Assembly (NCBI GenBank): GCA_964482955.1
Contig: CAYZZW010000004.1
Coordinates: 5,653-69,652, forward strand
From: an uncultured Treponemataceae bacterium
Lineage (GTDB): Bacteria > Spirochaetota > Spirochaetia > Treponematales > UBA12059
Length of the DNA: 64,000 nucleotides
Direction: 5' to 3'
Shown: piece after piece, positions 2,939-31,285 of the stretch
Layout: every line of letters begins with the position of its first letter
How positions within the stretch are numbered: the first letter of the stretch is position 1
Translations under genes and position numbers: made by a program
Notes under the pieces: model-generated
Databases searched by the model: none
What the model saw: the letters and a program-made list of their open reading frames with translations, nothing else
Told to the model about the DNA's origin: nothing

Positions 2939-2967
2939 TCGACCTCCGAGCGATGTTCCTCTATAAT
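2939..2967 (+). promoter_or_regulatory. Candidate sigma-70-type promoter for the alpha-2-macroglobulin/pbpC operon
   Basis: TCGACC-N17-TATAAT, with a perfect -10 TATAAT at 2962-2967. It lies 33 nt upstream of ATG 3000. A GAGGAG RBS sits at 2988-2993. Confidence 0.35.
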
Positions 2968-2999
2968 TGGACCCATTCGACCAAAACGAGGAGCCATCC

Positions 3000-5900
3000 A
3001 TGAACCGAACCGTCCGGACGATCTGCCGCGCTACGGCGCTCGTCGCCGCGATCGCGCTCGCCGCATGTGCGCTGACCGGCTGCAAGCCGAAGCCCGCCGC
3101 GGAGCTTCCCGCCGGTTCCGGCGTCCTCGAGACGGCGAACGACGGGCCGCCCGCCCAGTACGAGCTCGAGACGCTCGACGCCCAGCTCGCGTCGTACAAG
3201 ATCAAGTACTACAAGCCCGCCACCCGCGAGGAGCCCGCGCGCGACTCGAAAGAAGGCGCGATCCAGTCCACGTCGAACGAGCCCTTCGAGGCGATCGAGT
3301 TCGGCCCCTCGGGCGAGCTGCCGTCGGACGTGCGCCTGCCCGTGGTCTTCGTCTCATTTTCGCGGCCGGTGATCCCGCTCGCCAAGCTCGGCGAGCCGAT
3401 CAAGGAGTCGACGGTCTTCAAGATCGACCCGCCCCTCAAGGGCGTGTACCGTTGGCTCGGCACGAAGATGCTCTCGTTCCAGGCGGACGAGGCGATGCGC
3501 CCGCTCGTCGAGTACAAGGTCTCGGTCGATCCCGGGCTCAAGGCCCTCGACGGGACCCGGCTCGCCGCGCCGTGTTCGTTTTCCTTCTATAATGAACGCC
3601 TCCGCATGAGCGCGATCCGTCCGGGCACGGACCCCGCGAAGGAAGTCAATCCGGGCGACTGCCCGCCGGCCGAGGCGCGGCGCGTCCTCGTGACCTTTAA
3701 CTACCCGGTGGATCCCGCGGTCGTGTCGAAGGGCATGGAGGTGAAGGCCGGGGAAAAGACCGTCGGCTTCTCCGCGTCGCGCCCGAAGGACGCCGCGAAG
3801 TCCGTCCCGCCGGAACTCCTCGAGCGGCAGCTCGTCCTCGACCTTTCGTCGACCCCGCCCGAAAACGTTCAGGTGCTCGTGATCCTCAAGCGCGGGGCGA
3901 AGTCCGACGCGGACGGCCGGCCGCTCGAGTTCGACGAGTCGCTCGGGTTCCACACCCTCAGGCCCTTCGTCTTCGCCGACTCGTCGACGTACTCGTATTC
4001 CTTCCCGCGCTCCAAGAAAGGCGATTCGAACCCGATCTTCCTCATGTTTTCGCACCCGGTCGACGCGAAGGACGCGTGGAAGAAGATCGCCGCGTCGGGC
4101 GGATTGGCCATCGCCGCGGACAACGTGGAGGTGTACGGCCGCACCGTGCGCGTCAACGACTTGCCGGTGAAGTACGAAACCACGTACACGTTCACGGTGG
4201 ATCCCTCGCTCAAGGACGTCTACGGGCGCGCGCTCGGCAAGACGGCGACGGCCACGATCGAGATCGGCGGGCCCGCGCGTTTCGTGTACATCCCGAACCG
4301 GGGCGCGCGCATGGTCGAGGCGTCGTTCCCGCCGAAGCTCGTGTGGGAAATGCAGGATCCGCTCGAGGCGAGCGTCACCGTCGGAAAGCTCGCGAGCGAT
4401 CCGCTCCTCCGTCGTTCACATCTGCCGAACATTTCGGGCGGGCAGACGAAAAAGATCGATGTCGGCGCCTTGCCCCCGCACACGAAGCACTTCGAAACCA
4501 TCGACTTGAAGCCCTACGTCTCGAAGGAGGGGACGGGCTGGGTGGGCGTCACGTGGAAGGCCGTCACCGGCGTGAAGGATTACCAGAAGGCCGAAGCCGG
4601 ACTCGCCCTGCAGGTGACCGACCTGGCGGCCACGACGCGCTTCGGCGCCAACGGCCTCGTCTGCCTCGTGTCGCGCATCTCGACGGGAGAGGTCGTACCG
4701 GGCGCGGAAGTGGCGCTCAAGAATTTCGAGCGTACCGTGATGACCGCGCGCACGGACGGAAACGGCCTGGCCGAGTTCCGCTACACGCCGTCGGAGTTCC
4801 TGGCGAAGTTCCCGCCATCCTCCGAACGTCAGTGGGCGCGCTACGATCTCGCCGTCGCGGTGACGTACCGCGGCGACCGCATCGAGTACATCCCCGCGGA
4901 CCACGATATGTGGCGCTCCGGCATCTATTCGGTATCGAATCCGGCGGCGATCCAAAAGCCGCGCGCCGAAACCTTCCTCTTCACCGACCGGCGCATCTAC
5001 CGCCCCGGCGAGATCCTGACCTTCCGCGGCATCGACCGGACGCTCCTCATGGGCGCGTATACGGCCTACGAGGGTACGTGGACCATGAAACTCGTCGACT
5101 CCGAAGGCGAGACCGCGGGCTCCGTCTCCGGCTCCACGACCGAGTCCGGCGGCTTTACCGGCACGCTGAGCGTGCCGGACACCCTCGCGCCCGGCGAATG
5201 CCGCATCGAGTACAAGCGGAACGAAGGGCCCACGGAGACCGAGTACCCGACAAGGAGCGAACCAGTCACCGTCTCGTATTTCCGCAGGCTCATCTTCGAG
5301 GCGTCGATTTCAGCTCCTGAACTGCCCGCGTACCAGGGCGACGAACTGTCCTTCGGACTCTCCGCGTCCTACCTCGCCGGCGGCGCGCTCGCCGGCGCGA
5401 CCTACGACGGCTACTGGACGCGCGAACCCGCGTCGTTCAAGCCAGATGGCGCGCGCTGGGCGCCGTACCGCTTCGGTCCCGGCGGCTGGGGCGACCGGCA
5501 GACCCTGTCAGAGGTGAAGGGATCGCTCAACCAGCTCGGCAAGGCGGCCATTTCGCAGAAGACGACGATGGAAGGCGTCGCGGGGCTGCCCTATCGCTAT
5601 CGCCTCAACCTGAACGTGACGGACACGGTGAGCGCGCAGGCCATCGGCGCGTCGAAGGGCGTGGTCGTCCATCCCGCCGAATTCTATGTCGGCGCGCGCA
5701 TGCCCAAGGGCGGCTCGTGGATGCCCTTCCTCGGGAAGGGCGAGACGGGCGACGTCGAGATCGTCCTCGCGGAGCCGGGCGGCGCCGCCGTGTCGGAGCC
5801 CGTCACCGTGAAGGCGGAAGCCGTGCGCTACGAGTGGAAGATGGCGCAACAGCAGGGCGTCGACGCCGTCGACACGCGCTGGGAGCGCGTCGAGACGGTG

Positions 5901-8879
5901 ACCGACCGCGCGACGGTGTCGTATTCGGGATCGCTTTCGAACTACCGCTTCAAGGCCGAGAAGGAAGGCGAGTACGTGATCGTCCTCACCGCGCGCGACC
6001 GCGCCGGACGCGAAGCCGTGACCAAGCTGCCCGTGTACGTGACGGGTTCCGAGTGGATACGCTGGCGAGGCGACTCCGACGAGTCGGTGTCGCTCCTGCC
6101 GGACAAGGAACGCTACGCGCCCGGCGACACGGCGAAGGTGATCCTCGCCTCGCCCCTGCCGTCGGGCACCTACCTCGTCAACGTGGAGCGCGAGGGCATC
6201 CTCGATTCGCGCGTCGTGAAGGTCCAGGGCTCGACCGCCGTCATCGACGTGCCGATCAAGGAAACGTACCTGCCCGTCGTCTACGTGACGGTGTCGTCGT
6301 GGTCGAAGCGCTCGGGCGAGCCTTCGCACACCTACTACCAGCCCGACCTCGACAAGCCGAAGGGGTACTTCGGCGTCACGGCGCTCATGGTGGATTCCGC
6401 CGCGCGCCGCGTCTCGGTCGACATCAAGCCCGACCGCCCGGTGTACGCGCCGGGGCAGGAGGCGCGGATCAAGCTCAGCGCCAGCTTGAACGGCAAGCCC
6501 GTGAAGGGCGCCGAGCTCACCTTCATGGCGGTGGATCGCGGCGTCGTCGACATCGTCGACTACCACGTGCCCGATCCGGTCGCGTTCTTCTACGACCCGG
6601 ACAAGTTCCCCATCGCGACGCAGGGCGGCGATTCCCGCTCGATGCTCATCGATCCGGTCACCTACGAAGTGAAGGACCAGATCGGCGGCGACGCCGAGGA
6701 ATCGAAGATGGCCGAGCGCAAGGACTTCCGGCCGACCGCGGTCTTCGAGCCGGCGCTCGTCACCGGGGCCGACGGCACGGTGGAAGCCGTGTTCACGTGG
6801 CCCGACAACCTGACCACGTATCGCCTGACCGCGGTGGCCGTCAAGGACGACCGCTTCGGCCTGGCCGAAAGCGACCAACGCGTCTCCAACCCGATCAACG
6901 TGAAGGCGGTGTTGCCGCGCGGGCTCCGCGAGCGCGACACGGCGCTGGCCGGCGTCATCGCGACGAACCTGGACGACAAGCCGCACGAAGTGACCGTGCG
7001 CTGCTCCTCGACCCTCGTGTCGGTGGACGGCGTCGCGGAAAAGACGAAGACCGTCGAGCCGCGGGGCACCGTCGAATTCGCCTTCCGCCTGGCGGCCGAC
7101 AAGCCGGGCAAGGGCGAGATCGTCTTCACGACGAGCTCCGACGTCCTCAACGAGCGCCTCCGCGAGCCCTTCGAAGTGCGGCGGCCGTACATCTACGAAA
7201 CCGTGGCCACCATCGGCTCGCTGCCCGCGCGCGCGGGCGACACGGCGAAAGCCGCCGAGGGCGTCGTCATCCCGTCGAGCTCGCCGGACGGCGCGGGCGC
7301 CCTCGGGCTCTCGCTCGCGTCCAGCCGCGTGCCGACCCTTTCGTCCGCGGTCGACTACGTTTTCCGTTATCCCTACGGCTGCCTCGAACAGCGGACTTCC
7401 GCGCTCCTCCCGCTCGTCGCGTTCGGCGAATACGCCGACGCGTTCGGCCTCTCGTCCGAGGTGGGCGACGTCAAGTCCGCGGTGTCGGACGGCATGGCCT
7501 ATCTCAAGCGCTTCCAACAGCGGGACGGCGGTTTCGGCTGGTGGCCCGAATCGAAGCAGTCGGACTTTTACGTGAGCCTCCGCGTCGGGCACCTCGTCGC
7601 CCTCGCGGGCGCGAACGGCTATCAGACGCACGTGGACAAAGCCGCGCTCGCGGCCTATCTGCAAAAGCAGTTCCGGACGAAAGACCGCGGCGCCTACCTG
7701 GGCGCGTACGCAACGTGGGTGCTGGCGAAGCTCGGCGCCGGTTCGCGCGAGGCGATCGACACGGTCGTGCGCGAGGCGGACGCCGTCGGGTTCGTGGGCT
7801 GGTGCTTCGCGGGTTTGGCCGCCCAGGAACTCGGCGACAAGGCTTACGCGGCGGATCTCTTCCGCCGCGTGTCGAACTACATGCGACCCGCGGCCCGCGG
7901 CGTCGACCTGAGCGGCGTGAAGGGAGCCGAGTACGGCTTCTACGGCTCGAAGACCGAGGCGCTGTCGCTCTACCTCATGCTGAGCCTCAAGCTGGCGCCC
8001 GAAAGCGACATGAATTCGCGCATCGTCGACACCCTCGTGGCGGAGCAGAAGACGGGCTACTGGCATTCCACCGCGGAGACCTGGTGGGCCCTGCAGGCCT
8101 TCCGCGCGGCGGTGGACGCCGACGGTTCCGCAAAAGCCGATTTCACGGCGCGCGCCACGTTGGCCGGCGCCACCCTCGCGGAGACGACGTTCAAAGGACT
8201 GTCCGGCGAACGGGACGTCCGTTCGTTCGCCTTCACCGAAGCGCCCTTGAACGCGATGAAGCGCGACGAGATCCTGCCGCTCGAGATATCGCGCGAGGGA
8301 AACGGGGCGCTCTACTACGCCGCGACCCTGCGCTACGCGATTCCCGTGGAGACCGCGAAGGCGCGCGACGAAGGCTTGTCGGTGTATTCGGAAGTCCTCG
8401 ACGAGCATGGCAAGCCCCTCAAGGGCGACAAGCTCGTGAAGGGACGGCTCTACCGCATGCGCGTCGTCGTGTCGTCGAACCTCGACCGCACCTTCGTGGC
8501 CATCCGCGCGCCGGTGCCCTCGGGGTGCGACCTCGTGGACACGAGCCAGGCGACCTCCGTGCTCGTGGGTCCGAAACCGCCGAAAGCGGGCGAAGGCGGC
8601 GGCGATTACGAAAGCGGCTACGGCGGCGAGTATGACGGGTACGACGGGTACGGCGACTACTATTACTACGATCCCTATTCGCCGCTCGTGCGGCTGTACG
8701 ACGCGGAGGCGTGCGTCTTCTTCGACCGCTTCCGGCGGGGCACGCGCGAATACTCGTTCTACTTCCGCGCCGTCGCCAAGGGCGTGTACCCGACCCCGCC
8801 GGCGTCCGCGGAGTGCATGTACGAACCGGAGGTGTTCGGGCGGGACATCGGGCGGCTCTTCCTGATCGACGAAAAATGA
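3000..8879 (+). CDS. Bacterial alpha-2-macroglobulin family lipoprotein (YfhM/ECAM type), thioester-containing
   Basis: Track ORF 2967-8879. The preferred start is ATG 3000, six nt after GAGGAG. The N-terminus MNRTVRTICRATALVAAIALAACALTGC is a lipoprotein signal with lipobox LTGC. The thioester motif is intact in YPYGCLEQRTSALLPL (CLEQ codons 7380-7391). The ~1960-aa, beta-rich protein is typical of bacterial A2M and is paired with pbpC. Confidence 0.9.
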   Translation: MNRTVRTICRATALVAAIALAACALTGCKPKPAAELPAGSGVLETANDGPPAQYELETLDAQLASYKIKYYKPATREEPARDSKEGAIQSTSNEPFEAIEFGPSGELPSDVRLPVVFVSFSRPVIPLAKLGEPIKESTVFKIDPPLKGVYRWLGTKMLSFQADEAMRPLVEYKVSVDPGLKALDGTRLAAPCSFSFYNERLRMSAIRPGTDPAKEVNPGDCPPAEARRVLVTFNYPVDPAVVSKGMEVKAGEKTVGFSASRPKDAAKSVPPELLERQLVLDLSSTPPENVQVLVILKRGAKSDADGRPLEFDESLGFHTLRPFVFADSSTYSYSFPRSKKGDSNPIFLMFSHPVDAKDAWKKIAASGGLAIAADNVEVYGRTVRVNDLPVKYETTYTFTVDPSLKDVYGRALGKTATATIEIGGPARFVYIPNRGARMVEASFPPKLVWEMQDPLEASVTVGKLASDPLLRRSHLPNISGGQTKKIDVGALPPHTKHFETIDLKPYVSKEGTGWVGVTWKAVTGVKDYQKAEAGLALQVTDLAATTRFGANGLVCLVSRISTGEVVPGAEVALKNFERTVMTARTDGNGLAEFRYTPSEFLAKFPPSSERQWARYDLAVAVTYRGDRIEYIPADHDMWRSGIYSVSNPAAIQKPRAETFLFTDRRIYRPGEILTFRGIDRTLLMGAYTAYEGTWTMKLVDSEGETAGSVSGSTTESGGFTGTLSVPDTLAPGECRIEYKRNEGPTETEYPTRSEPVTVSYFRRLIFEASISAPELPAYQGDELSFGLSASYLAGGALAGATYDGYWTREPASFKPDGARWAPYRFGPGGWGDRQTLSEVKGSLNQLGKAAISQKTTMEGVAGLPYRYRLNLNVTDTVSAQAIGASKGVVVHPAEFYVGARMPKGGSWMPFLGKGETGDVEIVLAEPGGAAVSEPVTVKAEAVRYEWKMAQQQGVDAVDTRWERVETVTDRATVSYSGSLSNYRFKAEKEGEYVIVLTARDRAGREAVTKLPVYVTGSEWIRWRGDSDESVSLLPDKERYAPGDTAKVILASPLPSGTYLVNVEREGILDSRVVKVQGSTAVIDVPIKETYLPVVYVTVSSWSKRSGEPSHTYYQPDLDKPKGYFGVTALMVDSAARRVSVDIKPDRPVYAPGQEARIKLSASLNGKPVKGAELTFMAVDRGVVDIVDYHVPDPVAFFYDPDKFPIATQGGDSRSMLIDPVTYEVKDQIGGDAEESKMAERKDFRPTAVFEPALVTGADGTVEAVFTWPDNLTTYRLTAVAVKDDRFGLAESDQRVSNPINVKAVLPRGLRERDTALAGVIATNLDDKPHEVTVRCSSTLVSVDGVAEKTKTVEPRGTVEFAFRLAADKPGKGEIVFTTSSDVLNERLREPFEVRRPYIYETVATIGSLPARAGDTAKAAEGVVIPSSSPDGAGALGLSLASSRVPTLSSAVDYVFRYPYGCLEQRTSALLPLVAFGEYADAFGLSSEVGDVKSAVSDGMAYLKRFQQRDGGFGWWPESKQSDFYVSLRVGHLVALAGANGYQTHVDKAALAAYLQKQFRTKDRGAYLGAYATWVLAKLGAGSREAIDTVVREADAVGFVGWCFAGLAAQELGDKAYAADLFRRVSNYMRPAARGVDLSGVKGAEYGFYGSKTEALSLYLMLSLKLAPESDMNSRIVDTLVAEQKTGYWHSTAETWWALQAFRAAVDADGSAKADFTARATLAGATLAETTFKGLSGERDVRSFAFTEAPLNAMKRDEILPLEISREGNGALYYAATLRYAIPVETAKARDEGLSVYSEVLDEHGKPLKGDKLVKGRLYRMRVVVSSNLDRTFVAIRAPVPSGCDLVDTSQATSVLVGPKPPKAGEGGGDYESGYGGEYDGYDGYGDYYYYDPYSPLVRLYDAEACVFFDRFRRGTREYSFYFRAVAKGVYPTPPASAECMYEPEVFGRDIGRLFLIDEK

Positions 8880-11191
8880 CGAAGTTCCGCGCCCTGGCCC
8901 CCGCCGTCCTGGCGGGGGCCGCGTTGTACGCCCTCGTCCTCGCCCTTCTCGCGTACTGGCCCTACCCGGAACTCGGGTGCCTCCTCGAGCGCCCGTACTC
9001 CCTGCGCGTACTCGATGCCCGCGGCGAACCGCTCTCCGTGACGGCCGTGGACGGCGGCATACGCCGCGAGTGGACCGCGCTCGCCGACATCCCGCCCGCG
9101 GTCCGCGACGCCTTCGTGATCGCCGAAGACCGCTGGTTTTGGCTGCACCCCGGCGTGAACCCGCTTGCGGCCGCGCGCGCCTTCCTGCAAAACCGCGAAG
9201 CGGGCCGCGTCGTCTCCGGCGCGGCCACCCTCACGATGCAAGTGGCGCGTATGGCGGCCGCCGCGTATGCGAACGCCGGCCCGGGAACGGATGCCGAGGC
9301 CGCGCCATTCGCGGACGCGCGGGCGGGCGGCATGGCGGCCAAGCTGCGCGAGTCGATGAACGCCTTCCTCATCGAAGCGCGGCTTCCGAAGGCGCGCATC
9401 CTCGAACTCTACCTCAACAATGTCCCCTTCGGCCGAGGCGCCGAGGGCGTGCGTTCAGCGGCGTTCCGCTATTTCGGGAAGCCCCTCGACGAACTGTCGC
9501 GCGTCGAGGCGGGCTTGCTCGCCGTGGTGCCGCGGAGTCCGGGGGCGTACGATCCCGGGCGTTACCCCGACGAGACGGGCAGGGCGGCGTGGCGCTCGCT
9601 CGGTTCGTCTCGGACCTTCCGCGAGACCGCAGGACCCGCGGGCGCGGCAGCCTTCGTCGACGCGGCGAAAGCGTCTCGACCCGGCGCCTGGCCGTTCCGC
9701 GCGCCGCACTTTACGCGTTGGCTGATTTCGACGCGGCCGGACGTGGCCGCCGCGCGCGAGGCGCCGACCACGCTCGACCCCGGACTGCAAGTCGCCGCGG
9801 AGCGCCTGCTCGCGGAAGCCGTGGACGAGGCGAGCGCGAACCGGATCACGACCGGCGCCGTCCTCGTCCTCGACGCGCATACGGGAGCCGTGCTGGCGTG
9901 GGTCGGCTCGCGCGATTTCGCCGACGAGGCGAACGACGGCCAGGTGGACGGCGTCCTTTCGCTGTACCAGCCGGGCTCCTGCCTGAAACCCTTCCTGTAC
10001 GAGCTCGCCCTCGAGCGCGGCTTCACGCCGGCGACCGTGCTCCCGGACATCCCGCTCGAGTTCGGCCAGGCGGAAGTCTACCTGCCGCTCAACTACAACA
10101 ACCGCTTCAACGGCCCGGTGCGACTCCGCGTGGCGCTCGCGTCCAGCCTCAACGTGCCGGCCGTGTACGTCCTCGAGCGCCTGGGCGTGCAGGCGTTCTG
10201 CGACCGCCTCGTGGACCTGGGCTTCGACTCCATCGAAGCCCAGCGCGGCGAGCTCGGCGTGGGGCTGGCGCTCGGCAACGCGCGCGTGTCGCTCCTCGAG
10301 CTGACGCGCGCCTTCGTGACCTTTCCGCGCGGCGGCGAAACGCTCGAGCTCCGGCCCCTCAAGAACCCGCGCGTCAGACGCGACGCGGCGGCCGACGCGG
10401 ACGGCGTGCCCGTCATGACGCGTTACGGCGCGAACCTCGTGTGCTCCATCTTGAGCGACGACGCGAGCCGCTTCGCGGGCTTCGGCGCCGGCCGGACGAT
10501 GAATACGGACTTCGACGCCATCTTCAAGACGGGCACCGCCAACCAGTTCCAGAGCGTGTGGGCGCTCGGCGCCACGCCGGATTACGTCGTGGGCGTATGG
10601 ATGGGGAACTTCACGGGCGAGACGGTGGTCGGCCGCTCCGGCTCGGGGATACCCGCCCGCGTCGCGGCCCGCGTCTTGAGTCGCCTGGCGATTCCGGGTT
10701 CGGCCTTCCCGAAGCCCGAGGGCGCGCGCGAATACCGCGTGTGCTCCCTCTCCGGCGGAACCCCGACGGACGCGTGCCCGAGCGTCGTGTCCGAGTGGGT
10801 TCCGTACGGCGAGGAGCCCGCGCCCTGCGACTACCACGTCCGGGCGGGTAGCCGGGTCGACGTGCGGTATCCGCCCGAATACGCGCGTTGGCTGCGCGAC
10901 GGCGGGCGGAGCGGCACGGTCGACTCCGGCGAGGGAAGCCCGCGCTTCCTCCGACCGACGGACGGCGCGGTGTATTTTTACGATCCATCCGCGCCGGGGG
11001 GAGCCCAGGCGATCGCCGTGGAAGTCGCGGGGGGCGCCGACGTCGACTTAGGCTTGACCGTCGACGGCGCGCCGGTGTCGGGCCGCTTGCCCGACGGCCG
11101 CTGGTTCGTGAATCTCCGAACCGGCAGGCACCGTCTCGAGTTGCGGAACGGCCCCGAGGTCTTCGACGCCGTCACGATCACGGTGGAGTGA
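8876..11191 (+). CDS. pbpC: Penicillin-binding protein 1C (bifunctional glycosyltransferase/transpeptidase)
   Basis: ATG 8876 overlaps the A2M stop codon (ATGA at 8876-8879). The N-terminal TM is [30 protein letters not shown]51 motifs are [13 protein letters not shown] and GAATLTMQ. Transpeptidase motifs are SCLK (SxxK), SLN (SxN) and KTGT. The C-terminal beta-rich extension is of PBP1C type. Confidence 0.88.
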
Positions 11192-20166: not shown

Positions 20167-20688
20167 TTATTCGCCGAAAGGTAGCACGGTTCCGATCACC
20201 TTCTCAATCGGGAGCGGCCCGTAGGACCGCGAGTCGACGGACTCGAACCAGTTCGTGCCGACGAGGAAGACCGTGCCCGCGGGCACGGCGATCGACCCGG
20301 TCGCCTCCGAGCCGGCGGCCGAGGGCACCCGGGCGCCGTCCGGCCGCGCGATCCCGCCGCCCGAAACCGCGAGCGCGCAGGGTCCGACGGCGAAGACGCG
20401 CTTGACGATCCTGCCGCGCGGTCCGTCCGCGGCCACGAGCTCGTCCTGGGCCGGCGTCCGCCACCGGAGCGCGTAGACCGAGGCGATCGGGATCCGAAGC
20501 CCGTAGGCGCAGCGCGCGACGAGCACCACGTCGCCCTGGGACAGGGACGGTTCCATGGAACCGCCCTGCACGAAGGCCAGGTCGACGAAGCACGACTTGA
20601 CGACGAGGGCCAGCGCGATCGCCAGGGCCACGATCCGGCCGGGGGCGGCCGCGGGTGGCTTGCGTCGCGTCGGAGGCGTTTCGTCCAT
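20167..20688 (-). CDS. lepB: Signal peptidase I
   Basis: 173 aa with a TM anchor. The Ser box is GGSMEPSL, the Lys box is IVKRVFAV, and the C-terminal box is VGTNWFESVDSRSYGPLP. Confidence 0.85.
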   Translation of the reverse strand: MDETPPTRRKPPAAAPGRIVALAIALALVVKSCFVDLAFVQGGSMEPSLSQGDVVLVARCAYGLRIPIASVYALRWRTPAQDELVAADGPRGRIVKRVFAVGPCALAVSGGGIARPDGARVPSAAGSEATGSIAVPAGTVFLVGTNWFESVDSRSYGPLPIEKVIGTVLPFGE

Positions 20689-20718
20689 GATTCGGGTCGA
20701 GTCCGTGTCGCGCTCCTT

Positions 20719-20817
20719 GCCGAATCCGCCTGATTCGCCGAATCGTCTTGATTCGCGGAATCAGGCGGATTCGCGGAATCAGGCGGATTCGCGGAATCAG
20801 GCGGATTCGCGGAATCC
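20719..20817. repeat. 18-bp tandem repeat, 5.5 copies, each unit GAATC-N5-GATTC
   Basis: The units are gccGAATCcgcctGATTC (20719-20736) and gccGAATCgtcttGATTC (20737-20754). These are followed by three copies of gcgGAATCaggcgGATTC (20755-20772, 20773-20790, 20791-20808) and a partial gcggaatcc. The array lies in the 172-bp divergent region between lepB and the M23 peptidase gene. Confidence 0.95.
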
Positions 20818-20860
20818 TACTGTAAAAAGACGCGCGCTTTTTGTCGATAAGAAAAGGGCA

Positions 20861-22141
20861 ATGGAATTCGACGGCATCATCGGCACCCAAAAAGTAGACC
20901 GCAGGGCGGCGGCCCCGGCCCGCGACGACGCGCGCCCCGCCACCTTCGCGCTGAACCGCCAGACGCCCGTGCGGCGTCCGGCGGACCGTCCCGCGCGCGC
21001 GGTCGCCGCGAAAGGCGACGGCTTCCGCTTCGAGTCGATCCTGCCCGTCGGGGCGTCGGCTTCCGCGAATGTCGCCGTGGCGCCGAACGGAATGTCCCGT
21101 CAGGCGGTTCTGCCCGCCTTCGGCCGGACGAGCCGGGTCCTCAAGCGGCTCGCGGGGAAACTCCGGGGCTTTGGCCAAGGGCAAGGACCCGGCCTTGGCC
21201 CGGGCAGACTCGCCGTCCTGGCGCCGATCGCGCTGTCCTTCCTCGTCGCCGCGATTCTCGTCTCTTGGTCCCTGTCGCTGTCCGTCAGCGACGCGGTGGC
21301 CCCCATCGCCCTGCCCGCCGAGACCGCGAGCGAATCGGACCTGCTCCTTTCCTTCATATCGCCCGGACTCCAGGCGGACGACGAATCCGAAACCATCGAC
21401 GTGCCCAAGACCCCGGTGACCCTCACCGTGACCACCTACACCATCCGCCGCGGCGACAGCCTCGGGGGCATCGCCACGAAGTTCGGCGTGAGCCTGGACA
21501 GCCTCCTCAGCATGAACGGCATCAGGAACGCCTCGCGGGTGGCCGCGGGCACGGTGCTCAAGATCCCCAACATGTCCGGCATCGTCCACAAGGTGGCGCG
21601 GGGCGAAAACCTCTCCGCCATCTCGACGCGCTACAAGGTTCCCGTCGTGACCATCCTCGACGCGAACGACCTGGCCTCGGAAACCCTTGCCGTCGGCATG
21701 ACGCTCTTCATCCCCGGCGCGCGCCTGTCGCAGAGCGAAATGAACCGCGCGCTCGGAAAGCTCGTCATCTGGCCCGTACGCGGCCGCCTCAGTTCCTATT
21801 ACGGCTACCGCACGAGCCCCTTCTCCGGCGCGCGGCAGTTCCACAACGGCCTCGACATCGTGGCGGACTACGGCACCGGCGTGAAAGCCGCCATGGAAGG
21901 CAGCGTCGCCGACACGGGCTACAACACCGTGTACGGCAACTACGTCATCCTGTCCCATCCGGGCGGATACCAGACGATGTACGGTCACATGAGCAAGGTG
22001 AACGTCCGCAAGGGCGCCTCGCTCAAGCAGGGCGCGATCATAGGCGCGGTGGGCAATTCCGGCATCAGCACCGGATCGCACCTCCACTTCTCGTTGTTCA
22101 AGGGCGGTTCCGCGATCAATCCGCTCAAACTGCTGAACTAG
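20861..22141 (+). CDS. Membrane-anchored LysM-domain M23 family metallopeptidase
   Basis: Track ORF 20555-22141. The preferred start is ATG 20861, after AAAAGGG. There is a TM segment LAVLAPIALSFLVAAILVSW. Two LysM modules are present (YTIRRGDSLGGIATKFGVSLDSLLSMNG and HKVARGENLSAISTRYKVPVVTILDAN). The M23 motifs are HNGLDI and GNSGISTGSHLHFS. Confidence 0.88.
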   Translation: MEFDGIIGTQKVDRRAAAPARDDARPATFALNRQTPVRRPADRPARAVAAKGDGFRFESILPVGASASANVAVAPNGMSRQAVLPAFGRTSRVLKRLAGKLRGFGQGQGPGLGPGRLAVLAPIALSFLVAAILVSWSLSLSVSDAVAPIALPAETASESDLLLSFISPGLQADDESETIDVPKTPVTLTVTTYTIRRGDSLGGIATKFGVSLDSLLSMNGIRNASRVAAGTVLKIPNMSGIVHKVARGENLSAISTRYKVPVVTILDANDLASETLAVGMTLFIPGARLSQSEMNRALGKLVIWPVRGRLSSYYGYRTSPFSGARQFHNGLDIVADYGTGVKAAMEGSVADTGYNTVYGNYVILSHPGGYQTMYGHMSKVNVRKGASLKQGAIIGAVGNSGISTGSHLHFSLFKGGSAINPLKLLN

Positions 22142-22160
22142 CGCCTTTTTTCGCGTGCTT

Positions 22161-22181
22161 CGTCACGCTTTTGGCGTGACG
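22161..22181 (+). terminator. Candidate terminator hairpin after the M23 gene
   Basis: CGTCACGC-TTTTG-GCGTGACG gives an 8-bp stem. It is followed by the T-rich stretch gatcttgatttt. Confidence 0.35.
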
Positions 22182-22234
22182 GATCTTGATTTTCGCTGCG
22201 GTCGGATGTAGGATTCCGCGGTCGGGGGAATGCC

Positions 22235-22366
22235 ATGAGAAAACTCGTCGTCGTCGTCATCGTCATGCTTGCAATCTTCACCTTCATCCGCGAAATGCCG
22301 TCGGCTTCGGGCGCTGACGCCGCCAGCGTCCAGAACGCGGCCATGTCGGTCATCGGCCAGAACTGA
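22235..22366 (+). CDS. Small hydrophobic peptide (43 aa), hypothetical
   Basis: The ORF is below the track size cut-off. ATG 22235 lies 4 nt after GGGGGA. The product is MRKLVVVVIVMLAIFTFIREMPSASGADAASVQNAAMSVIGQN, ending at TGA 22364-22366. The N-terminus looks like a signal or TM segment. No homology is known to me. Confidence 0.35.
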   Translation: MRKLVVVVIVMLAIFTFIREMPSASGADAASVQNAAMSVIGQN

Positions 22367-22407
22367 ACCTCGGATTCCGACTGGACCCGTGTCCCGCTGA
22401 ATCGCGC

Positions 22408-22456
22408 TAAAAATCCAAAATCTCCAAAAAGTCCAAAACCTCCAAAACCTCCAATC
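22408..22456. repeat. Imperfect ~9-bp A-tract repeat (TCCAAAAnC), 5 copies
   Basis: The sequence ctaaaaatccaaaatctccaaaaagtccaaaacctccaaaacctccaatc has A4-5 tracts recurring every 8-9 bp. It lies inside the AT-rich island upstream of the sigma factor gene. Confidence 0.85.
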
Positions 22457-22508
22457 TGAACGAATATCTCTAATTTAGACAATGATTTGCATGCAACTAC
22501 CCGTCATA

Positions 22509-22553
22509 AAAGTAGACAGCAATACATGAGTCGTTTGGCGAATAAAGTAGACA
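22509..22553 (+). promoter_or_regulatory. Direct repeat AAAGTAGACA x2 (candidate upstream activator sites)
   Basis: AAAGTAGACA occurs at 22509-22518 and 22544-22553, a 35-bp spacing. The copies lie about 140 and 105 bp upstream of the sigma-54 -24 element, the usual distance for enhancer-binding-protein sites. Confidence 0.3.
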
Positions 22554-22648
22554 CTTATACCCCGGGGTCCAGCATCCTGCCATGCCGTAAAATTGTAATT
22601 CGTTATCACGCAATAGAATACCGTTTTAGTTCAACTCTTCAACGGTCT

Positions 22649-22664
22649 TGGCACGGTCTTTGCT
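22649..22664 (+). promoter_or_regulatory. Sigma-54 (RpoN) dependent -24/-12 promoter
   Basis: TGGCAC(22649-22654)-GGTCT-TTGCT(22660-22664) is an exact match to TGGCAC-N5-TTGCW. The GG (22650-51) and GC (22662-63) are 12 bp apart. The element lies 19 nt upstream of ATG 22683. Confidence 0.7.
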
Positions 22665-22682
22665 TTACTAAAGGCGGAGACT

Positions 22683-23531
22683 ATGATGAAGACCACCACG
22701 AAGACCGTCGATCGCGAGGACACGCTCAATGCGTACTACGCGAAAATCAAGCTGATTCCCCTCCTGAGCGCCGAAGATGAAGCCGAGCTGTCGCGGCGAA
22801 TCCGAGCGGGAGACGAAGCGGCGCGCAAGCGACTCATCGAGTCGAACCTCCGGCTCGTCGTCAAGATCGCGCGGTCCTTCGCCACGAGCGACGTGCCCCT
22901 CGTCGATCTCATCCAGGAAGGCAACATGGGCTTGATCCGCGCCGCGGAAAAGTACGACGACCGCCGCCAGGTGCGTTTTTCCACCTACGCTTCCTGGTGG
23001 ATCAAGCAGGCCATCACCCGCTCCCTCGTCAACTCGCGCCGCTCCATCCGCCTGCCCCACCGCAAGGAAGAGCTTCTCCGCAAGGTGCAGAAGTCCTACG
23101 CGGGCCTCACGCAGACCCTCGGACGCGAGCCCACCACCGCGGAGCTCTCGCACGACGTCGGCCGCCCCGAAGACGTCGTCGGCAAGGTGCTCGGCATGTC
23201 CGCCTCGCCCGTGTCGCTCGACGGCGAAACCGGCGACGAGTCCGGCAGCTTCCTCGACGTGTTCGAAGACTATACCTACAGCCCCGACGGCGACCTCATG
23301 AAGGAATGCCTCCGCCAGAAGGCGCTCGAGATGCTCGAAGTGCTCATGGAAAAGGAAAAGCAGATCCTCATGTACCGCTTCGAGTTCTACCAGGGCCGGA
23401 AGTACACCCTCAAGACCATCGGCGACCGCCTCGGCATCTCGCCGGAGACCGTCCGCCAGATCGAAAAGCGAGCCATCCGCCGCCTCCGCGCCGAGAGCAC
23501 GGAAGAACTCCTCGAGTTCGTCGGGGCTTGA
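22683..23531 (+). CDS. Sigma-70 family RNA polymerase sigma factor, RpoS-like (group 2/3)
   Basis: 282 aa. Region 2 is LIESNLRLVVKIARSF...LIQEGNMGLIRAAEKYD...FSTYASWWIKQAITRS. Region 3 is TAELSHDVG. Region 4 is ILMYRF...YTLKTIGDRLGISPETVRQIEKRAIRRLR. Two adjacent ATGs are present (22683 and 22686); the second has better spacing from GGAG 22676-22679. Confidence 0.85.
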   Translation: MMKTTTKTVDREDTLNAYYAKIKLIPLLSAEDEAELSRRIRAGDEAARKRLIESNLRLVVKIARSFATSDVPLVDLIQEGNMGLIRAAEKYDDRRQVRFSTYASWWIKQAITRSLVNSRRSIRLPHRKEELLRKVQKSYAGLTQTLGREPTTAELSHDVGRPEDVVGKVLGMSASPVSLDGETGDESGSFLDVFEDYTYSPDGDLMKECLRQKALEMLEVLMEKEKQILMYRFEFYQGRKYTLKTIGDRLGISPETVRQIEKRAIRRLRAESTEELLEFVGA

Positions 23532-23538
23532 TTCCGGC

Positions 23539-24312
23539 TTATAAGTCGACGACGAGGCCGTCGTAGGCCGGGGCGCAGACGCAGGCGCCGGGCGCCGCGG
23601 CGCAGATCGCTTCCAGTTCGACGTGCGAGTGGTCGTGGCAGACGTGCGTGAGGAAGGCCCGGCGCGCCCCGATGCGCGACGCCTCCTCGAGGGCGCGTTG
23701 GACGGTGAAGTGGGTCGCATGCGGCCGCGACCTGAGGCCGTCGATCACGAGCGTCGAAATCCCCTCGAGCAGGCGGTACGACGCGGCCGGAATTTCCGAA
23801 CAATCCGTCAGGTACGCGAAGCTCCCGATGCGCCAGCCCAAGACGGGCAGGGTGCCGTGGAGGAGCGGCACCGGCAGCGCCAGGCACGAGCCGACGCGGA
23901 AGCCGCCCGGGCCGACCGCCGTCAACGCGAGCTTCGGGACGCCGCCGCCCGCCTGGCGCGGCGAAAAGGCGTAGGAGAACCGGACGCGGAGCTCCTCGAT
24001 GCAGTCGGCGTCACCGACCACCGCGACGGGCTTTTGCCGGCTCAGCGCGCGGAGGTCGTCGATGCCGTGGACGTGGTCCGCGTGGGCGTGCGTCACGAGC
24101 AGCGCGTCGACCCGGGTTATGCCCGCGCGTATCGCCTGGAGGCGGAACTCCGGCCCCGCGTCGATCAGGATCGCCTCGCCACCGTCCCCCCTGACCAGCG
24201 CCGACGAGCGCCAGCGCGTGTCGCGCGGATCGGCCGAGGAGCACACCCGGCACGCGCAGCCCGGCACCGGAACGCCGTGGCTCGTGCCCGTGCCCAGGAA
24301 TTCGAGCGTCAT
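23539..24312 (-). CDS. MBL-fold metallo-hydrolase (PhnP/GPMB-like)
   Basis: This is the C-terminal 257 aa of track ORF 23539-25440. ATG 24312 overlaps the upstream stop codon (ATGA). The product starts MTLEFLGTGTSHGVP and carries the metal motif LLVTHAHADHVHGIDDL. Confidence 0.75.
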   Translation of the reverse strand: MTLEFLGTGTSHGVPVPGCACRVCSSADPRDTRWRSSALVRGDGGEAILIDAGPEFRLQAIRAGITRVDALLVTHAHADHVHGIDDLRALSRQKPVAVVGDADCIEELRVRFSYAFSPRQAGGGVPKLALTAVGPGGFRVGSCLALPVPLLHGTLPVLGWRIGSFAYLTDCSEIPAASYRLLEGISTLVIDGLRSRPHATHFTVQRALEEASRIGARRAFLTHVCHDHSHVELEAICAAAPGACVCAPAYDGLVVDL

Positions 24313-26938: not shown

Positions 26939-27157
26939 GATCCCGTCCCGACCGCGCCCATCGCCGTCCGGCGGCGTTCGCGCGGCCACCCGGCGGTTTC
27001 GCCCCCGATTCCGCGATATCGGTATACTATGGATACGCCGCGGCGCCGGTAACCACTCGGCCGTCCGCGGGCTTTTCATTGGAGGGCTCGCCGCCCGCCT
27101 TGTCAGGTACACCACCCAAAACGGAAGGCCTCCGCGCCGACCGGTATGGAGGAAATC

Positions 27158-30100
27158 ATGTCGATCAAACGAAAAGCCCTGGTTCCGCTCCTCGGCCTCG
27201 TCTGCGCGGGCATCGCGCTGGCCTACGACCCCCCGGTCGGCGGAGACGCCCTGTCCGGGCTCCAGTTCGCCCCGACGGTGGCCAGCGGTTCGAGCGTCAC
27301 CGCCGCCGATTCGCCCTGGGCGGACGCGGCCAACCCGGCCGCCTCGGGCAGCCAGCAGCGGGCCGTCATCGACCTGTCCTACGTCGTGCTGGCCGGCTTC
27401 GAGGGCGGCGAGGGCTTCGGGCAGGGCGCCTCGCTCGGCTTGACCCTCCCCAAGGCGTACGGCGTCTGGACCTTCGGCGCCGGCTTCTTGAGCGTGCCCG
27501 ACACCATCCCCTCGATGCCGCTCGGCACGTCTGGAACCGGGCGCGTCTCCTTTTCGAAGGACCTGTACCCGAATCTGAACGCCGGCATCGGGCTCGAAGG
27601 CCGCTTCGGCACGGCGCCCTCCGGCGACTCCGACTGGGCGTTGGGCGCCTCCATCGGCATCATCCACTCGCTCGGAGACGTCGCGTTCGTCCGCGACCTG
27701 TCGTGGGGTCTGGCGGTCTCCGGCCTCGGCAAGGCGTACGCGCCGTCCGGCGCCGCCGCCGAGGGCGGCAGCGCGTCCGGCTATCCCTCTCCCTTCACGC
27801 CGGCCGTCGGAGTCCGCGGCAACCTGGTCAAGACGGACTCGTTCCGGCTCGGGCTCGCCCTCGACCTCTCGTCGCCCTTCTTCCAGAACCTCCTGTTCAA
27901 CGCGGGACTCGAAGCCGGCATCGGAAAGCACGTGACGGCCCGCGTGGGCTGGAATTTCAACGCGCGCGAATTCGGACGCGGCGAGCACGACTCCTTCCTG
28001 CCGTCGTTCGGGCTCACCGGCCTCATCCCGCTCGACCGCAAGAGCGACGAATCCTTCATATCGAAGCAGGGCTGGGACAAGAGCGAGCTCAAGCCGACCG
28101 TCGCGGCGCAGCCGCTCTACGACGGCGGCTGGGCCATCGCCGCGGGACTCGCGGTGCCGCTCGGCGTCGTGGACAAGAATCCGCCGAAAATCGCGGCGAA
28201 ATTCCCCGAATCCAAATACGATTCCTATTACATCTCCCCGAACGACGACGGGAAGCGCGACCAGGTCGAGTTCCCGCTCGACATCAAGGACGAGCGCTAC
28301 CTCCAGTCCTACACGATGTACGTGTACAAGAAGGGCGAGGAGGACAAGGACCCCGTCCGCGTGATCGGCAACAAGGAAGCCCGCCCGTCCACCGAGGGCT
28401 TCAAGGGCGTGTGGGATCGCATAACGTACGTGAAGAAGGGCATCCCCGTCCCCGAGACGCTTTCGTGGAACGGCGTCCTCGAATCCGGCGAAGTGGCCCC
28501 CGACGGCGACTACGTCATCGTCATCGAGGCGAAGGACGACAACGGCAACCTGGCCCGCAGCGAGCCCAAGGCCGTCTCCGTGGACCGCACCGCGCCGGTC
28601 GCGACAATCGAACAGCCGAAGGGCGCCGACGACCTCATCTTCAGCCCGGACGGCGACGGCGCCAAGGACGTCCTCACGCTGCCGCAGTCGGGCAGCAAGG
28701 AAGACGAGTGGGTCGGCACCGTGTCCGACGCTTCCGGCAAGGCCGTCCGCGTCGCGAAGACGAGCGCCGCCGCTCCCGCCGCCTTTGCCTGGGACGGCGC
28801 CGACGACAAGGGCGCGGTCGTGCCCGACGGCGTCTACTCCTACAAGCTGACCACGGTCGACCGCGGGGACAACGCCGCGGAGGCGACGGTCGGCAACATC
28901 ATCGTCAACACGAAGAAGCCGCCGGTGAACCTCTCGCTCGATAAGGCCTTCTTCAGCCCCAACAAGGACGGCGTGAAGGACACGGTCGGCATCGTGCCGG
29001 ACGTGCCCTCGCTCGAGGGCATCGCCTCGTGGAAGCTCGACGTGAAGAACGCCGCGGGCGACGAAGTCTGGTCCGTGACCGGCAAGGGCGCCGAGGGCGT
29101 CGAAGCCAAGCGCGATTTCGACGGCCTCCGCTCCGGGGCGGTCCTTCCCGAAGGTCAGTATCAGGCCACGTTGGCGGTGCTCTACCGCAACGGCCACGCC
29201 CCGACGGCCACCACGTCGAAGTTCGTCCTCGACGTCACGCCGCCTAAGGCGAAGCTCTCCGTCGACCGCCTCGCGTTCGATCCGTCCGCCGAGGGCGACA
29301 AGGGTCGCGTGCGCGTGTCGCAGGACGCCTCCGAAGAGACCGCGTGGTTCGCCGAGATCGAGGGCGAAGGCAAGGTCGTACGCCGCTTCAAGTTCATCGG
29401 CAAGCCCGAAGCGTCCGTAGACTGGGACGGCCGCGACGAGGCGGGCGCCATCGCCGCCGACGGCCTCTACGCGTACTCCCTCGCGTCGGAGGACGAAGCC
29501 GGCAACTCCTTCAAGACCGCCACCGGGCGCATCAAGCTCGACACCGAAAAGAAGGCCGCGCTCCTCTCGACCGACCGCCGCGCGTTCAGCCCGAACGGCG
29601 ACAAAGTGTTCGACACGGTCACGATATCGCCAGACGTGCGCTCCTCCGACGCCCCCGTCGAGTGGACGCTCCGGATCAATCCGGTTTCCGACGCGCTGAA
29701 ACCCGTCCGCACGCTCACCGGAAAGGGCGCCTATCCGAAGCCCTTCGCGTGGGACGGAAAGGACGACAAGGGAGGCAGGCTCCCCGACGGCGCGTACAAG
29801 GCCCGCCTCGACCTCCTCTTCGCGAACGCCGCCACGACCACCGTGGAAACCGGCGAGATAGCGCTCGATACGGTGGCGCCCAAGATCGAGGTGCGCGTCG
29901 ACCGCGTTCTCTTCTCGCCGAACGGCGACGGCCGCAAGGACGCGGTCACCTTCACGCAGGTATCCGTGCCCGGCGACTCCTGGGACGGCGCCATCATGGA
30001 CGCGGCGGGCAATAAGCTCCGCGCGTATTCGTGGAAGAACAAGGCCGAAACCTTCTCGTGGGACGGCACGGACGCGAACGGCAACAAGGTGCCCGACGGT

Positions 30101-31285
30101 TCGTACGCGTACGCCGTCGAGTCGACCGACGCGGCCGGCAACACGGGTTCGGCCCGCGTGCCGCGCGTGTCGCTCGACACCCGCGACGTCTCGGTGTTCG
30201 TCACGTCCTCCGCCGCGGGCTTCTCCCCGAACGGCGACGGCAAGTTCGACGAGCTCTCCTTCGGCGCCATCGTGACGCCCAAGGACGGCGTCGCGTCCTG
30301 GTCGCTCAAGGTGCTCGACAAGAAGGGCCAGGCGATCCGCTCGTGGACGGGCACGGGCTCGGGTTCCGTCCCGGCCAAGACCCCCTGGAACGGCCTCGGC
30401 GACGACGGCACGCTCCGCCAGGGCGCCTTCACCGCCGTCTTCGCGGTCGAGTACGAGCGCGGCGACCTCGTCGAGGCGACGACGACCCCGTTCACCCTCG
30501 ACACCGAAGGGCCGCGCATCTCGCTCAAGACCTCTCCCGAGTACTTCAGTCCCGACAACGACGGCGTCGACGACGAACTGGCCATCGACCTCTCGGTCGA
30601 GGACGCCTCGCCCGTCGCCGCCTGGAAGCTCGACATCACCGAAACCTCGTCCGAGAACATCGACGGCCCCGGCAAGCAGCGCGCCTTCACGGGCTTCGGC
30701 GGCACGGGCACGCCGGCGTCGCGCATCGTGTGGGACGGCCGTTCGCGCAAGGGCGAGCTCGTCGATTCCGCCACCGATTACCCGATCGGCCTCTCCGTCG
30801 TCGACGCGTGGGGCAACGAGGCGACCATGACCACCACGGTGACCACGGACATCCTCGTCATCAAGGAAGGCGACCGCTACAAGATCAAGGTGCCCTCCAT
30901 CGTGTTCGTCCCGATGCGCGTGGACTTCTCCGGCCTTCCGGCCGACCGCCTCGACCGCAACATGCTCGTGCTCAAGCGCATCGCCGCCAGCTTGAACCGC
31001 TTCAAGGACTACCGCGTCGCGGTGGAAGGCCACGCGGTGAACGGCGCCAAGCTCGAAGGGAAAGGCGCCGCCGCCGTCGAGCAGGAAGAGACGTCGTTCA
31101 CGCTGCCGTTCTCGATCAAGCGCGCGCAGTCGATCCTCGACATGCTCGTGAAGCTCGGCGTGGACCGCGCGCGGCTCACGGTGGTCGGCCGCGGCTCGAG
31201 CAGTCCCGCCGTGCCGCTCACCGACGTGGAAAACCGCTGGAAGAACCGCCGAGTCGAGTTCATCCTCGAAAAGAACGTGAAGTAA
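27158..31285 (+). CDS. OmpA-family protein: barrel-like N-domain, eight FlgD-Ig-like repeats, C-terminal OmpA peptidoglycan-binding domain
   Basis: Track ORF 27146-31285; the preferred start is ATG 27158, four nt after GGAGGA. The signal peptide is MSIKRKALVPLLGLVCAGIALA. About 330 aa of Gly/Ser/Ala-rich sequence with alternating hydrophobicity follow. Next come eight ~100-aa repeats, each with FSP(N/D)GDG..D ... W(D/N)G.D..G..(V/L)PDG.Y. The C-terminus is RVAVEGHA...SIKRAQSILDMLVKLGVDRARLTVVGRGSSSP...NRRVEFIL (OmpA_C-like). Confidence 0.8.
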   Translation: MSIKRKALVPLLGLVCAGIALAYDPPVGGDALSGLQFAPTVASGSSVTAADSPWADAANPAASGSQQRAVIDLSYVVLAGFEGGEGFGQGASLGLTLPKAYGVWTFGAGFLSVPDTIPSMPLGTSGTGRVSFSKDLYPNLNAGIGLEGRFGTAPSGDSDWALGASIGIIHSLGDVAFVRDLSWGLAVSGLGKAYAPSGAAAEGGSASGYPSPFTPAVGVRGNLVKTDSFRLGLALDLSSPFFQNLLFNAGLEAGIGKHVTARVGWNFNAREFGRGEHDSFLPSFGLTGLIPLDRKSDESFISKQGWDKSELKPTVAAQPLYDGGWAIAAGLAVPLGVVDKNPPKIAAKFPESKYDSYYISPNDDGKRDQVEFPLDIKDERYLQSYTMYVYKKGEEDKDPVRVIGNKEARPSTEGFKGVWDRITYVKKGIPVPETLSWNGVLESGEVAPDGDYVIVIEAKDDNGNLARSEPKAVSVDRTAPVATIEQPKGADDLIFSPDGDGAKDVLTLPQSGSKEDEWVGTVSDASGKAVRVAKTSAAAPAAFAWDGADDKGAVVPDGVYSYKLTTVDRGDNAAEATVGNIIVNTKKPPVNLSLDKAFFSPNKDGVKDTVGIVPDVPSLEGIASWKLDVKNAAGDEVWSVTGKGAEGVEAKRDFDGLRSGAVLPEGQYQATLAVLYRNGHAPTATTSKFVLDVTPPKAKLSVDRLAFDPSAEGDKGRVRVSQDASEETAWFAEIEGEGKVVRRFKFIGKPEASVDWDGRDEAGAIAADGLYAYSLASEDEAGNSFKTATGRIKLDTEKKAALLSTDRRAFSPNGDKVFDTVTISPDVRSSDAPVEWTLRINPVSDALKPVRTLTGKGAYPKPFAWDGKDDKGGRLPDGAYKARLDLLFANAATTTVETGEIALDTVAPKIEVRVDRVLFSPNGDGRKDAVTFTQVSVPGDSWDGAIMDAAGNKLRAYSWKNKAETFSWDGTDANGNKVPDGSYAYAVESTDAAGNTGSARVPRVSLDTRDVSVFVTSSAAGFSPNGDGKFDELSFGAIVTPKDGVASWSLKVLDKKGQAIRSWTGTGSGSVPAKTPWNGLGDDGTLRQGAFTAVFAVEYERGDLVEATTTPFTLDTEGPRISLKTSPEYFSPDNDGVDDELAIDLSVEDASPVAAWKLDITETSSENIDGPGKQRAFTGFGGTGTPASRIVWDGRSRKGELVDSATDYPIGLSVVDAWGNEATMTTTVTTDILVIKEGDRYKIKVPSIVFVPMRVDFSGLPADRLDRNMLVLKRIAASLNRFKDYRVAVEGHAVNGAKLEGKGAAAVEQEETSFTLPFSIKRAQSILDMLVKLGVDRARLTVVGRGSSSPAVPLTDVENRWKNRRVEFILEKNVK

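Follow-up and report, generated by a model that had tools for sequence, protein, structure and literature searches.

A predicted sigma-54 promoter upstream of the spirochaete counterpart of Borrelia rpoS in an uncultured Treponemataceae bacterium

We analysed a 64-kb stretch of DNA from an uncultured Treponemataceae bacterium (contig CAYZZW010000004.1; hereafter the window), in which a sequence with the form of a sigma-54 (RpoN) -24/-12 promoter lies at positions 22649-22664 of the plus strand, directly upstream of a gene for an RpoS-like sigma factor. This motif is found once in the window and is conserved in all the related spirochaete loci that we compared, most of which have palindromes at a fixed distance upstream of it. 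The locus is probably orthologous to the rpoS locus of Borrelia burgdorferi, and one of the related loci carries rpoN. We put at roughly 0.85 the probability that the motif functions as a sigma-54 promoter and drives the spirochaete counterpart of Borrelia rpoS. An initial annotation of this DNA had proposed such a promoter on the model of the Rrp2-RpoN-RpoS pathway, and the proposal is supported by the conservation of the core in 30 of 30 spirochaete loci, by its absence from about 130 control loci, by the upstream palindrome and by the rpoN gene of the related locus L008.

The core promoter motif

The sequence at 22649-22664 (+), TGGCACGGTCTTTGCT, reads TGGCAC-GGTCT-TTGCT, with the GG doublet at 22650-22651 and the GC doublet at 22662-22663, exactly 10 nt apart as is required of a sigma-54 promoter. 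It is the single match to TGGCAC-N5-TTGCW on both strands of the window, and dinucleotide-preserving shuffles contained a mean of 0.01 matches, with at least one match in 1 of 100 shuffles. Together with its flanks (cTTGGCACGGtctTTGCTtta), the core agrees with the extended sigma-54 consensus YTGGCACGr-N3-TTGCW, which is said to be that of Barrios et al. from 1999. The end of the core is separated by 18 nt from an ATG at 22683 and by 21 nt from a second ATG at 22686. Analysis of the base composition showed that the GC content falls to its minimum, 55%, in the two 500-nt windows that span 22001-23000 and is 62-76% in all the other windows. The perfect match and its location in an AT-rich island, both claimed in the initial annotation, were thereby borne out. 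The -24 and -12 elements also fall inside an 11-nt tandem direct repeat at 22642-22663 (ACGGTCTTGGC / ACGGTCTTTGC; family D3), which is probably a coincidence since it is absent at other loci.

Conservation of the core across sigma factor loci

We fetched 163 loci with relatives of the window sigma factor and scanned the 250 nt located 5' of each gene. The spirochaete set comprises 30 loci, namely the window and 29 of the fetched loci, and the further loci (about 130), in which the sigma factor is 38-44% identical to the window protein (Firmicutes SigA and similar), were used as controls. A core of the form TGGCAY-N5-(T/C/A)TGCW, with 0-1 mismatch, is present upstream of the sigma gene in 30 of the 30 spirochaete loci, which include all those with a sigma factor at least 47% identical to the window protein plus one Treponema locus at 44%. 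The control loci contain zero strict matches, and a match with two mismatches is found in one of them only.

Across the 30 loci the TGGCA and TGC positions are constant and the 5-nt spacer is free (GGTCT, GATTA, GCTTC, AATAA and others), a pattern expected of a site read by sigma-54. This comparison of orthologous upstream regions had been suggested as a check of the promoter, and it showed that GG-N10-GC is kept throughout without conservation of the spacer. Judged from the alignment, the conservation of the core is not like that resulting from RNA structure or from recent duplication. The strict core appears 24 times in 274 kb of spirochaete DNA (both strands), each time at the promoter of an rpoS counterpart. 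Between the core and the start codon there are 12 to 86 nt, and nearly all the related loci, those of GC-rich genomes included, have an AT-rich sequence in the 10 nt that follow the -12 element. When the window was compared with its closest relative, L081, the conserved islands in the diverged spacer were two candidate enhancer copies, the core, the sequence GGAGAC and the ATG.

Probable orthology with the Borrelia rpoS locus

Burtnick et al. 2007 (PMC1976401) described the gene order flgI-flgJ-rpoS in B. burgdorferi and a sigma-54 promoter between flgJ and rpoS; the rpoS start identified there by primer extension is rpoN-dependent (PMC1976401). The order flgI (PF02119), flgJ (PF10135) and sigma gene is found in 11 of the 30 spirochaete loci; in L002, the PF02119 score of flgI is 303 bits, and flgJ, a small rod-binding gene, matches PF10135. 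The Borrelia core, TGGCACAGTTTTTGCA according to primer sequences (PMC1976401), has the same form as that of the window (TGGCACGGTCTTTGCT), and in both organisms it directly precedes the gene for a short sigma factor of about 270-280 aa without region 1.1. In the window protein the position of E. coli RpoS K173 is occupied by Glu, and the Arg-Lys pair R126/K127 lies 42/43 residues past the conserved Ile84; these offsets equal those between I79 and R121/K122 in Borrelia RpoS (PMC6719511).

The two loci differ in the gene located upstream, which is flgJ in Borrelia and a LysM-M23 peptidase gene in the window, and in their hosts, since Borrelia is an AT-rich tick-borne pathogen whereas the window belongs to a GC-rich (69%) uncultured spirochaete that is represented by a metagenome only. 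Taken together, the comparisons indicate that the window promoter is almost certainly homologous to the rpoS promoter of B. burgdorferi and would act in a similar way. The initial annotation had described the sigma cascade as conserved or convergent. Because the host is itself a spirochaete, of the same phylum as Borrelia, and 11 loci keep flgI-flgJ-rpoS, the first of these terms applies and convergence can be dropped.

The sigma factor

The alternative sigma factor gene occupies 22686-23531 (+) and encodes a protein of 281 aa. The open reading frame (ORF) begins at the alternative start 22683 (22683-23531, 282 aa), and the same frame is opened by the ATG at 22686. The latter is most likely the start codon, as had been predicted: it aligns with the single ATG of L081, and the identical database protein P0001 has 281 aa. 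Pfam identified regions 1.2, 2, 3 and 4, with region 1.2 beginning at residue 12, and no region 1.1. The best NCBIfam match is rpoS_proteo (TIGR02394), with 235 bits against a cutoff of 378.7, and PRK05657 gave 224 against 394; with both scores below the curated equivalog cutoffs, membership in the proteobacterial RpoS family was rejected. The protein is 39% identical to E. coli RpoS, and the comparison with PDB entries found it about equally similar to the C-terminal parts of SigA/RpoD and to RpoS. By these features it is a group-2-like alternative sigma factor. As it fails the proteobacterial RpoS model, the name RpoS is used here in the Borrelia sense only, and the earlier designation RpoS-like holds in that sense, on account of the locus synteny and the sigma-54 promoter, but not in the proteobacterial one.

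The closest database proteins, among the matches listed, are 81% and then 60-68% identical to the window protein, and all of them come from spirochaete metagenome-assembled genomes (MAGs) labelled Spirochaetes, Spirochaetia, Spirochaetales or Rectinemataceae. The best-matching genome loci belong to Spirochaetaceae, Treponemataceae and Treponema MAGs. The database relatives P0002-P0120 are annotated as 'RpoD/SigA' or 'RNA polymerase primary sigma factor', names that are probably wrong given the length of about 280 aa, the lack of region 1.1, the sigma-54 promoter and the synteny with Borrelia rpoS. A convergent gene for an MBL-fold hydrolase begins 8 nt past the stop codon of the sigma gene, which indicates that the sigma gene is monocistronic.

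Candidate enhancer palindromes upstream of the core

When the upstream regions of the spirochaete loci were lined up on the -24/-12 core, an 18-bp palindrome was exposed. The sequence TGTATA-N6-TATACA, centred 93-107 nt 5' of the -24 GG, is present with at most three mismatches in 24 of the 30 loci (shuffles: mean 0.9, maximum 4) and with at most two in 15 of them (shuffles: mean 0.14). Most loci have a second, weaker copy about 33 bp further upstream, that is, approximately three helical turns away. Within the 274 kb, matches with no more than one mismatch occur solely upstream of the rpoS-counterpart promoter. The distance between palindrome and core is constant whether the upstream gene is flgJ, an M23 peptidase gene or a divergent Sua5 gene, which makes the palindrome a part of the promoter rather than of the gene next to it.

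The proximal candidate enhancer, or upstream activating sequence, of the window (TGGCGAATAAAGTAGACA, 22536-22553, +) is centred 105 nt 5' of the GG. It is a diverged TGTATA-N6-TATACA, with four mismatches to the consensus, and is near-identical to TGGCGACAAAAGTATACA of L081, which is found at an equal distance. The distal candidate (CCGTCATAAAAGTAGACA, 22501-22518, +) is centred about 140 nt 5' of the GG and was recognised as a footprint shared with L081; its register was set by alignment to TGCCTACAAAAGTATACA of that locus, a fixed-window scan having scored a slightly shifted 18-mer. This copy retains the right half-site AAAGTAGACA and its left half is degenerate. The right halves of both window copies form a direct repeat, 35 bp apart (family D2), and the left halves have drifted in the window as well as in L081.

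A pair of palindromes spaced by about 33 bp, at about 100 nt 5' of the GG, would represent the classic layout of an NtrC-type enhancer. At the enteric promoter glnAp2, the NtrC sites are located at about -108 and -140. The spirochaete loci resemble glnAp2 in having a -24/-12 core and, roughly 100-140 nt upstream, two putative activator sites that are separated by about three helical turns. They differ from it in the site itself, TGCACC-N5-GGTGCA in glnAp2 and TGTATA-N6-TATACA in the spirochaetes, and in the target, which is glutamine synthetase there and a sigma factor in the window. A further difference concerns Borrelia, where rpoS is activated without an enhancer (PMC1976401), whereas the family of the window has the palindrome pair about 100 and 135 nt upstream.

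We also detected a tentative second element between the candidate enhancer and the core, AATTCGTTA-TCACGC-AATAGAATA at 22597-22620 (+), centred about 41 nt 5' of the GG, as a weak match to AATTCCTTA-N5-TAAGGAATT. With up to five mismatches, this pattern is centred 37-41 nt 5' of the GG in 15 fetched loci and in the window. It has perfect 10-nt arms in L008, and the element is also present about 40 nt 5' of the GG in L095 and L097-L100. The assignment in the window is weak because of 5 mismatches in 18 positions, a 6-nt spacer and poor conservation in L081. Speculatively, a DNA-bending protein or a second regulator could bind to this element.

Predicted transcription start and leader

Transcription from sigma-54 promoters starts about 11-13 nt past the C of the -12 GC. 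With this usual geometry, the segment 22665-22676 (+) would comprise the AT-rich DNA that is melted (TTACTAAAGG) and, at about 22674-22676, the predicted start. A Shine-Dalgarno sequence, GGAG, can be read at 22676-22679 (+) and would correspond to approximately +2 to +5 of the predicted mRNA. GGAGAC is kept in L081, and a purine-rich GGAG/AGGA box is likewise placed in most of the related loci. The core end lies 21-27 nt before the start codon in 18 of the 30 loci, 22-23 nt being commonest, and other loci reach 86 nt, so that leader length is variable in the family. The leader would be about 11 nt long in the window and about 11-15 nt in the commonest loci, with the ribosome-binding site at its 5' end. 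A nearly leaderless mRNA had already been predicted in the initial annotation, and it appears to be real because the short core-to-start distance is the commonest state among the loci.

In Borrelia the rpoS leader has 50 nt and is bound by BosR, which controls mRNA stability (PMC11109971). The predicted leader of about 11 nt in the window would, by comparison, leave no room for leader control of the BosR type. In two further loci, L005 (5353-5383) and L084 (about 3970-4003), the core ends just 12-14 nt before the ATG, and the rpoS mRNAs of these loci would be leaderless or nearly so.

Proposed mechanism and alternative explanations

An rpoN gene was identified in L008 at 5749-7140 (TIGR02395, 370 bits against a cutoff of 277), 2.2 kb downstream of the RpoS-like gene, with a SpoIID/TPR gene lying between the two on the opposite strand. 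L008 is the only one of the 29 related loci with rpoN in its flanks, and no sigma-54 activator gene was found in the flanks of these 29 loci. The strong purifying selection on the core site provides an indirect argument for the presence of sigma-54 in the host.

The sequence of events that we infer for this promoter, from sigma-54 binding and the identity of the activator to looping, the start site and the regulon, would be as follows. RNA polymerase with sigma-54 would bind TGGCAC-N5-TTGCT (22649-22664) as a closed complex unable to open alone. An activator of the NtrC family, presumably the Rrp2 counterpart, would bind as dimers at 22501-22518 and 22536-22553, oligomerise, loop to the polymerase and open the AT-rich 22665-22674 with ATP; the AT-rich element near 22597-22620 may aid looping. 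Transcription from about 22675 would then produce a single-gene mRNA with a leader of about 11 nt and a 5' GGAG, translated from the ATG at 22686, and the resulting sigma factor would redirect RNA polymerase to its own gene set.

Several points weigh against a functional sigma-54 promoter of this kind. No rpoN or activator gene was found within the window by six-frame searches for GAFTGA, the activator Walker A motif and the RpoN box, or by Pfam on the sizeable ORFs. The other matches to a sigma-54 promoter in the window (at most two mismatches) are only intragenic or badly placed. Both enhancer copies of the window are diverged, with at least four mismatches to the family consensus, and the right half-sites alone are intact. 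The predicted leader, of about 11 nt and with its 5' end taken up by the ribosome-binding site, is unusually short. In addition, the scan of 22100-23700 that found no sigma-70-type promoter was a simple consensus scan, which may leave room for a weak or atypical additional promoter or for read-through from upstream.

The motif could be a chance match, and the gene might owe its transcription to a sigma-70-type promoter that escaped recognition or to read-through from the peptidase and small-ORF genes upstream. The lack of rpoN and activator genes in the window would fit this explanation, and the longer rpoS transcript that B. burgdorferi also makes from an upstream promoter (PMC1976401) renders additional promoters plausible. 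We regard it as extremely improbable, given that 0.01 matches are expected, that the core is present in all the spirochaete loci and absent from the controls, and that the strict core is found nowhere else in the 274 kb of related DNA; the result of the sigma-70 scan and a terminator-like hairpin at 22159-22183, after the peptidase gene, also argue against it. Slightly less improbable, and still very unlikely, is that the 16-mer and the palindromes are sites of other proteins, such as a repressor or a BosR-like factor of the Fur family, with sigma-54 uninvolved. The palindromes have no known cognate protein, and Borrelia BosR has been reported to bind around the rpoS promoter (PMC3037356), although the present view is that BosR acts on the rpoS mRNA rather than the promoter (PMC11109971). 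The constant positions, however, are exactly the sigma-54 contacts, the spacer being free; the same core is experimentally sigma-54-dependent in the orthologous Borrelia locus (PMC1976401), and the spacing of the two upstream sites matches classic activator geometry.

The remaining alternative keeps sigma-54 and proposes an enhancer-independent promoter of the Borrelia Rrp2 style, in which the palindromes serve a second regulator or a nucleoid protein. Its precedent is B. burgdorferi itself, where rpoS needs no more than a minimal -24/-12 promoter and Rrp2 showed no binding to the DNA upstream (PMC1976401), and the degeneracy of the window copies is in line with it. Against this stand the fixed distance of the palindromes from the promoter across families, whatever the upstream gene, their restriction to this position in the 274 kb, and the survival of both copies as footprints shared by the window and L081. 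We therefore judge an enhancer-independent promoter unlikely.

Proposed evolution of the RpoN-to-RpoS cascade

In the Lyme-disease spirochaete the sigma-54-to-RpoS cascade acts as the central switch for virulence, and the literature on this organism regards the network as novel and specific to Borrelia. A full-text literature search, of incomplete coverage, found no description of RpoN-to-RpoS wiring outside Borrelia. The same predicted wiring is seen in free-living, GC-rich and gut or sediment spirochaetes, including genomes of the Treponema type, which would date the circuit before the origin of the pathogen.

We lean, by a small degree, towards an RpoN-to-RpoS cascade ancestral to Spirochaetia (Spirochaetaceae, Treponemataceae, Rectinemataceae and relatives), one that was ancestrally enhancer-dependent, with the 18-bp palindrome and a near-leaderless mRNA. 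The enhancer-independent Rrp2 of Borrelia and its 50-nt, BosR-controlled leader would then be derived, and the palindrome would be the long-sought DNA target of the helix-turn-helix of the Rrp2 family. Such a candidate enhancer sequence could explain why Rrp2 has retained a DNA-binding domain that is dispensable at the Borrelia rpoS promoter. The two states, an enhancer with an 11-nt leader and no enhancer with a 50-nt regulated leader, offer a natural comparison in which regulation may have moved from transcription to mRNA stability.

The upstream neighbour and the intergenic region

The gene upstream of the promoter, and not part of it, encodes a LysM + M23 peptidase (NlpD/DipM-like; 20555-22141, +; Pfam). 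A gene of this type precedes the sigma gene in 7 of the 30 loci (window, L081, L084, L085, L001, L006 and L093). The presence of a peptidase gene in some loci and flgJ in others suggests that the promoter travelled with the sigma gene through at least one rearrangement. The arrangement resembles nlpD-rpoS of E. coli and other Proteobacteria, in which a gene of the LysM + M23 peptidase family also lies directly upstream, on the same strand, of an RpoS-type sigma gene. E. coli NlpD, in contrast, has lost the catalytic H-x-H, whereas the window peptidase retains HLHF, and the window sigma factor falls below the proteobacterial RpoS cutoff. E. coli rpoS depends mainly on a sigma-70 promoter located within nlpD, and its leader is long and regulated. 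The resemblance may be a coincidence, since most of the related spirochaete loci have flgJ upstream.

Zero Rfam families matched the intergenic region. Between the peptidase gene and the sigma promoter lies a small ORF for a hydrophobic protein of 40 aa (MRKLVVVVIVMLAIFTF...; 22246-22368), which is conserved in L081 and L083, has a ribosome-binding site ahead of it and is called as a gene in L083. Just 3' of this ORF, at 22409-22454, there are about 4.6 tandem copies of the 9-bp unit TCCAAAACC with phased A-tracts. A role of these repeats as phased bending elements was considered and rejected, as they are located upstream of both enhancer copies and are absent in L081.

Other features of the window

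At 2967-11191, a gene for a bacterial alpha-2-macroglobulin (1970 aa) overlaps or abuts a gene for a PBP1C-type transglycosylase/transpeptidase, which we take to be the known A2M-PbpC pairing. The region 27146-31285 encodes a protein of 1379 aa with repeated FlgD-Ig and CHU_C (type IX secretion signal-like) domains and a C-terminal OmpA domain. Seven large ORFs (316, 762, 508, 758, 1915, 339 and 1024 aa) with a strong coding signal in the GC content at third codon positions fill 42655-62944; Pfam domains at E <= 1e-5 were found in none of the seven. This run of ORFs is followed, from 62954 onward, by a gene for a MoxR-type AAA ATPase.

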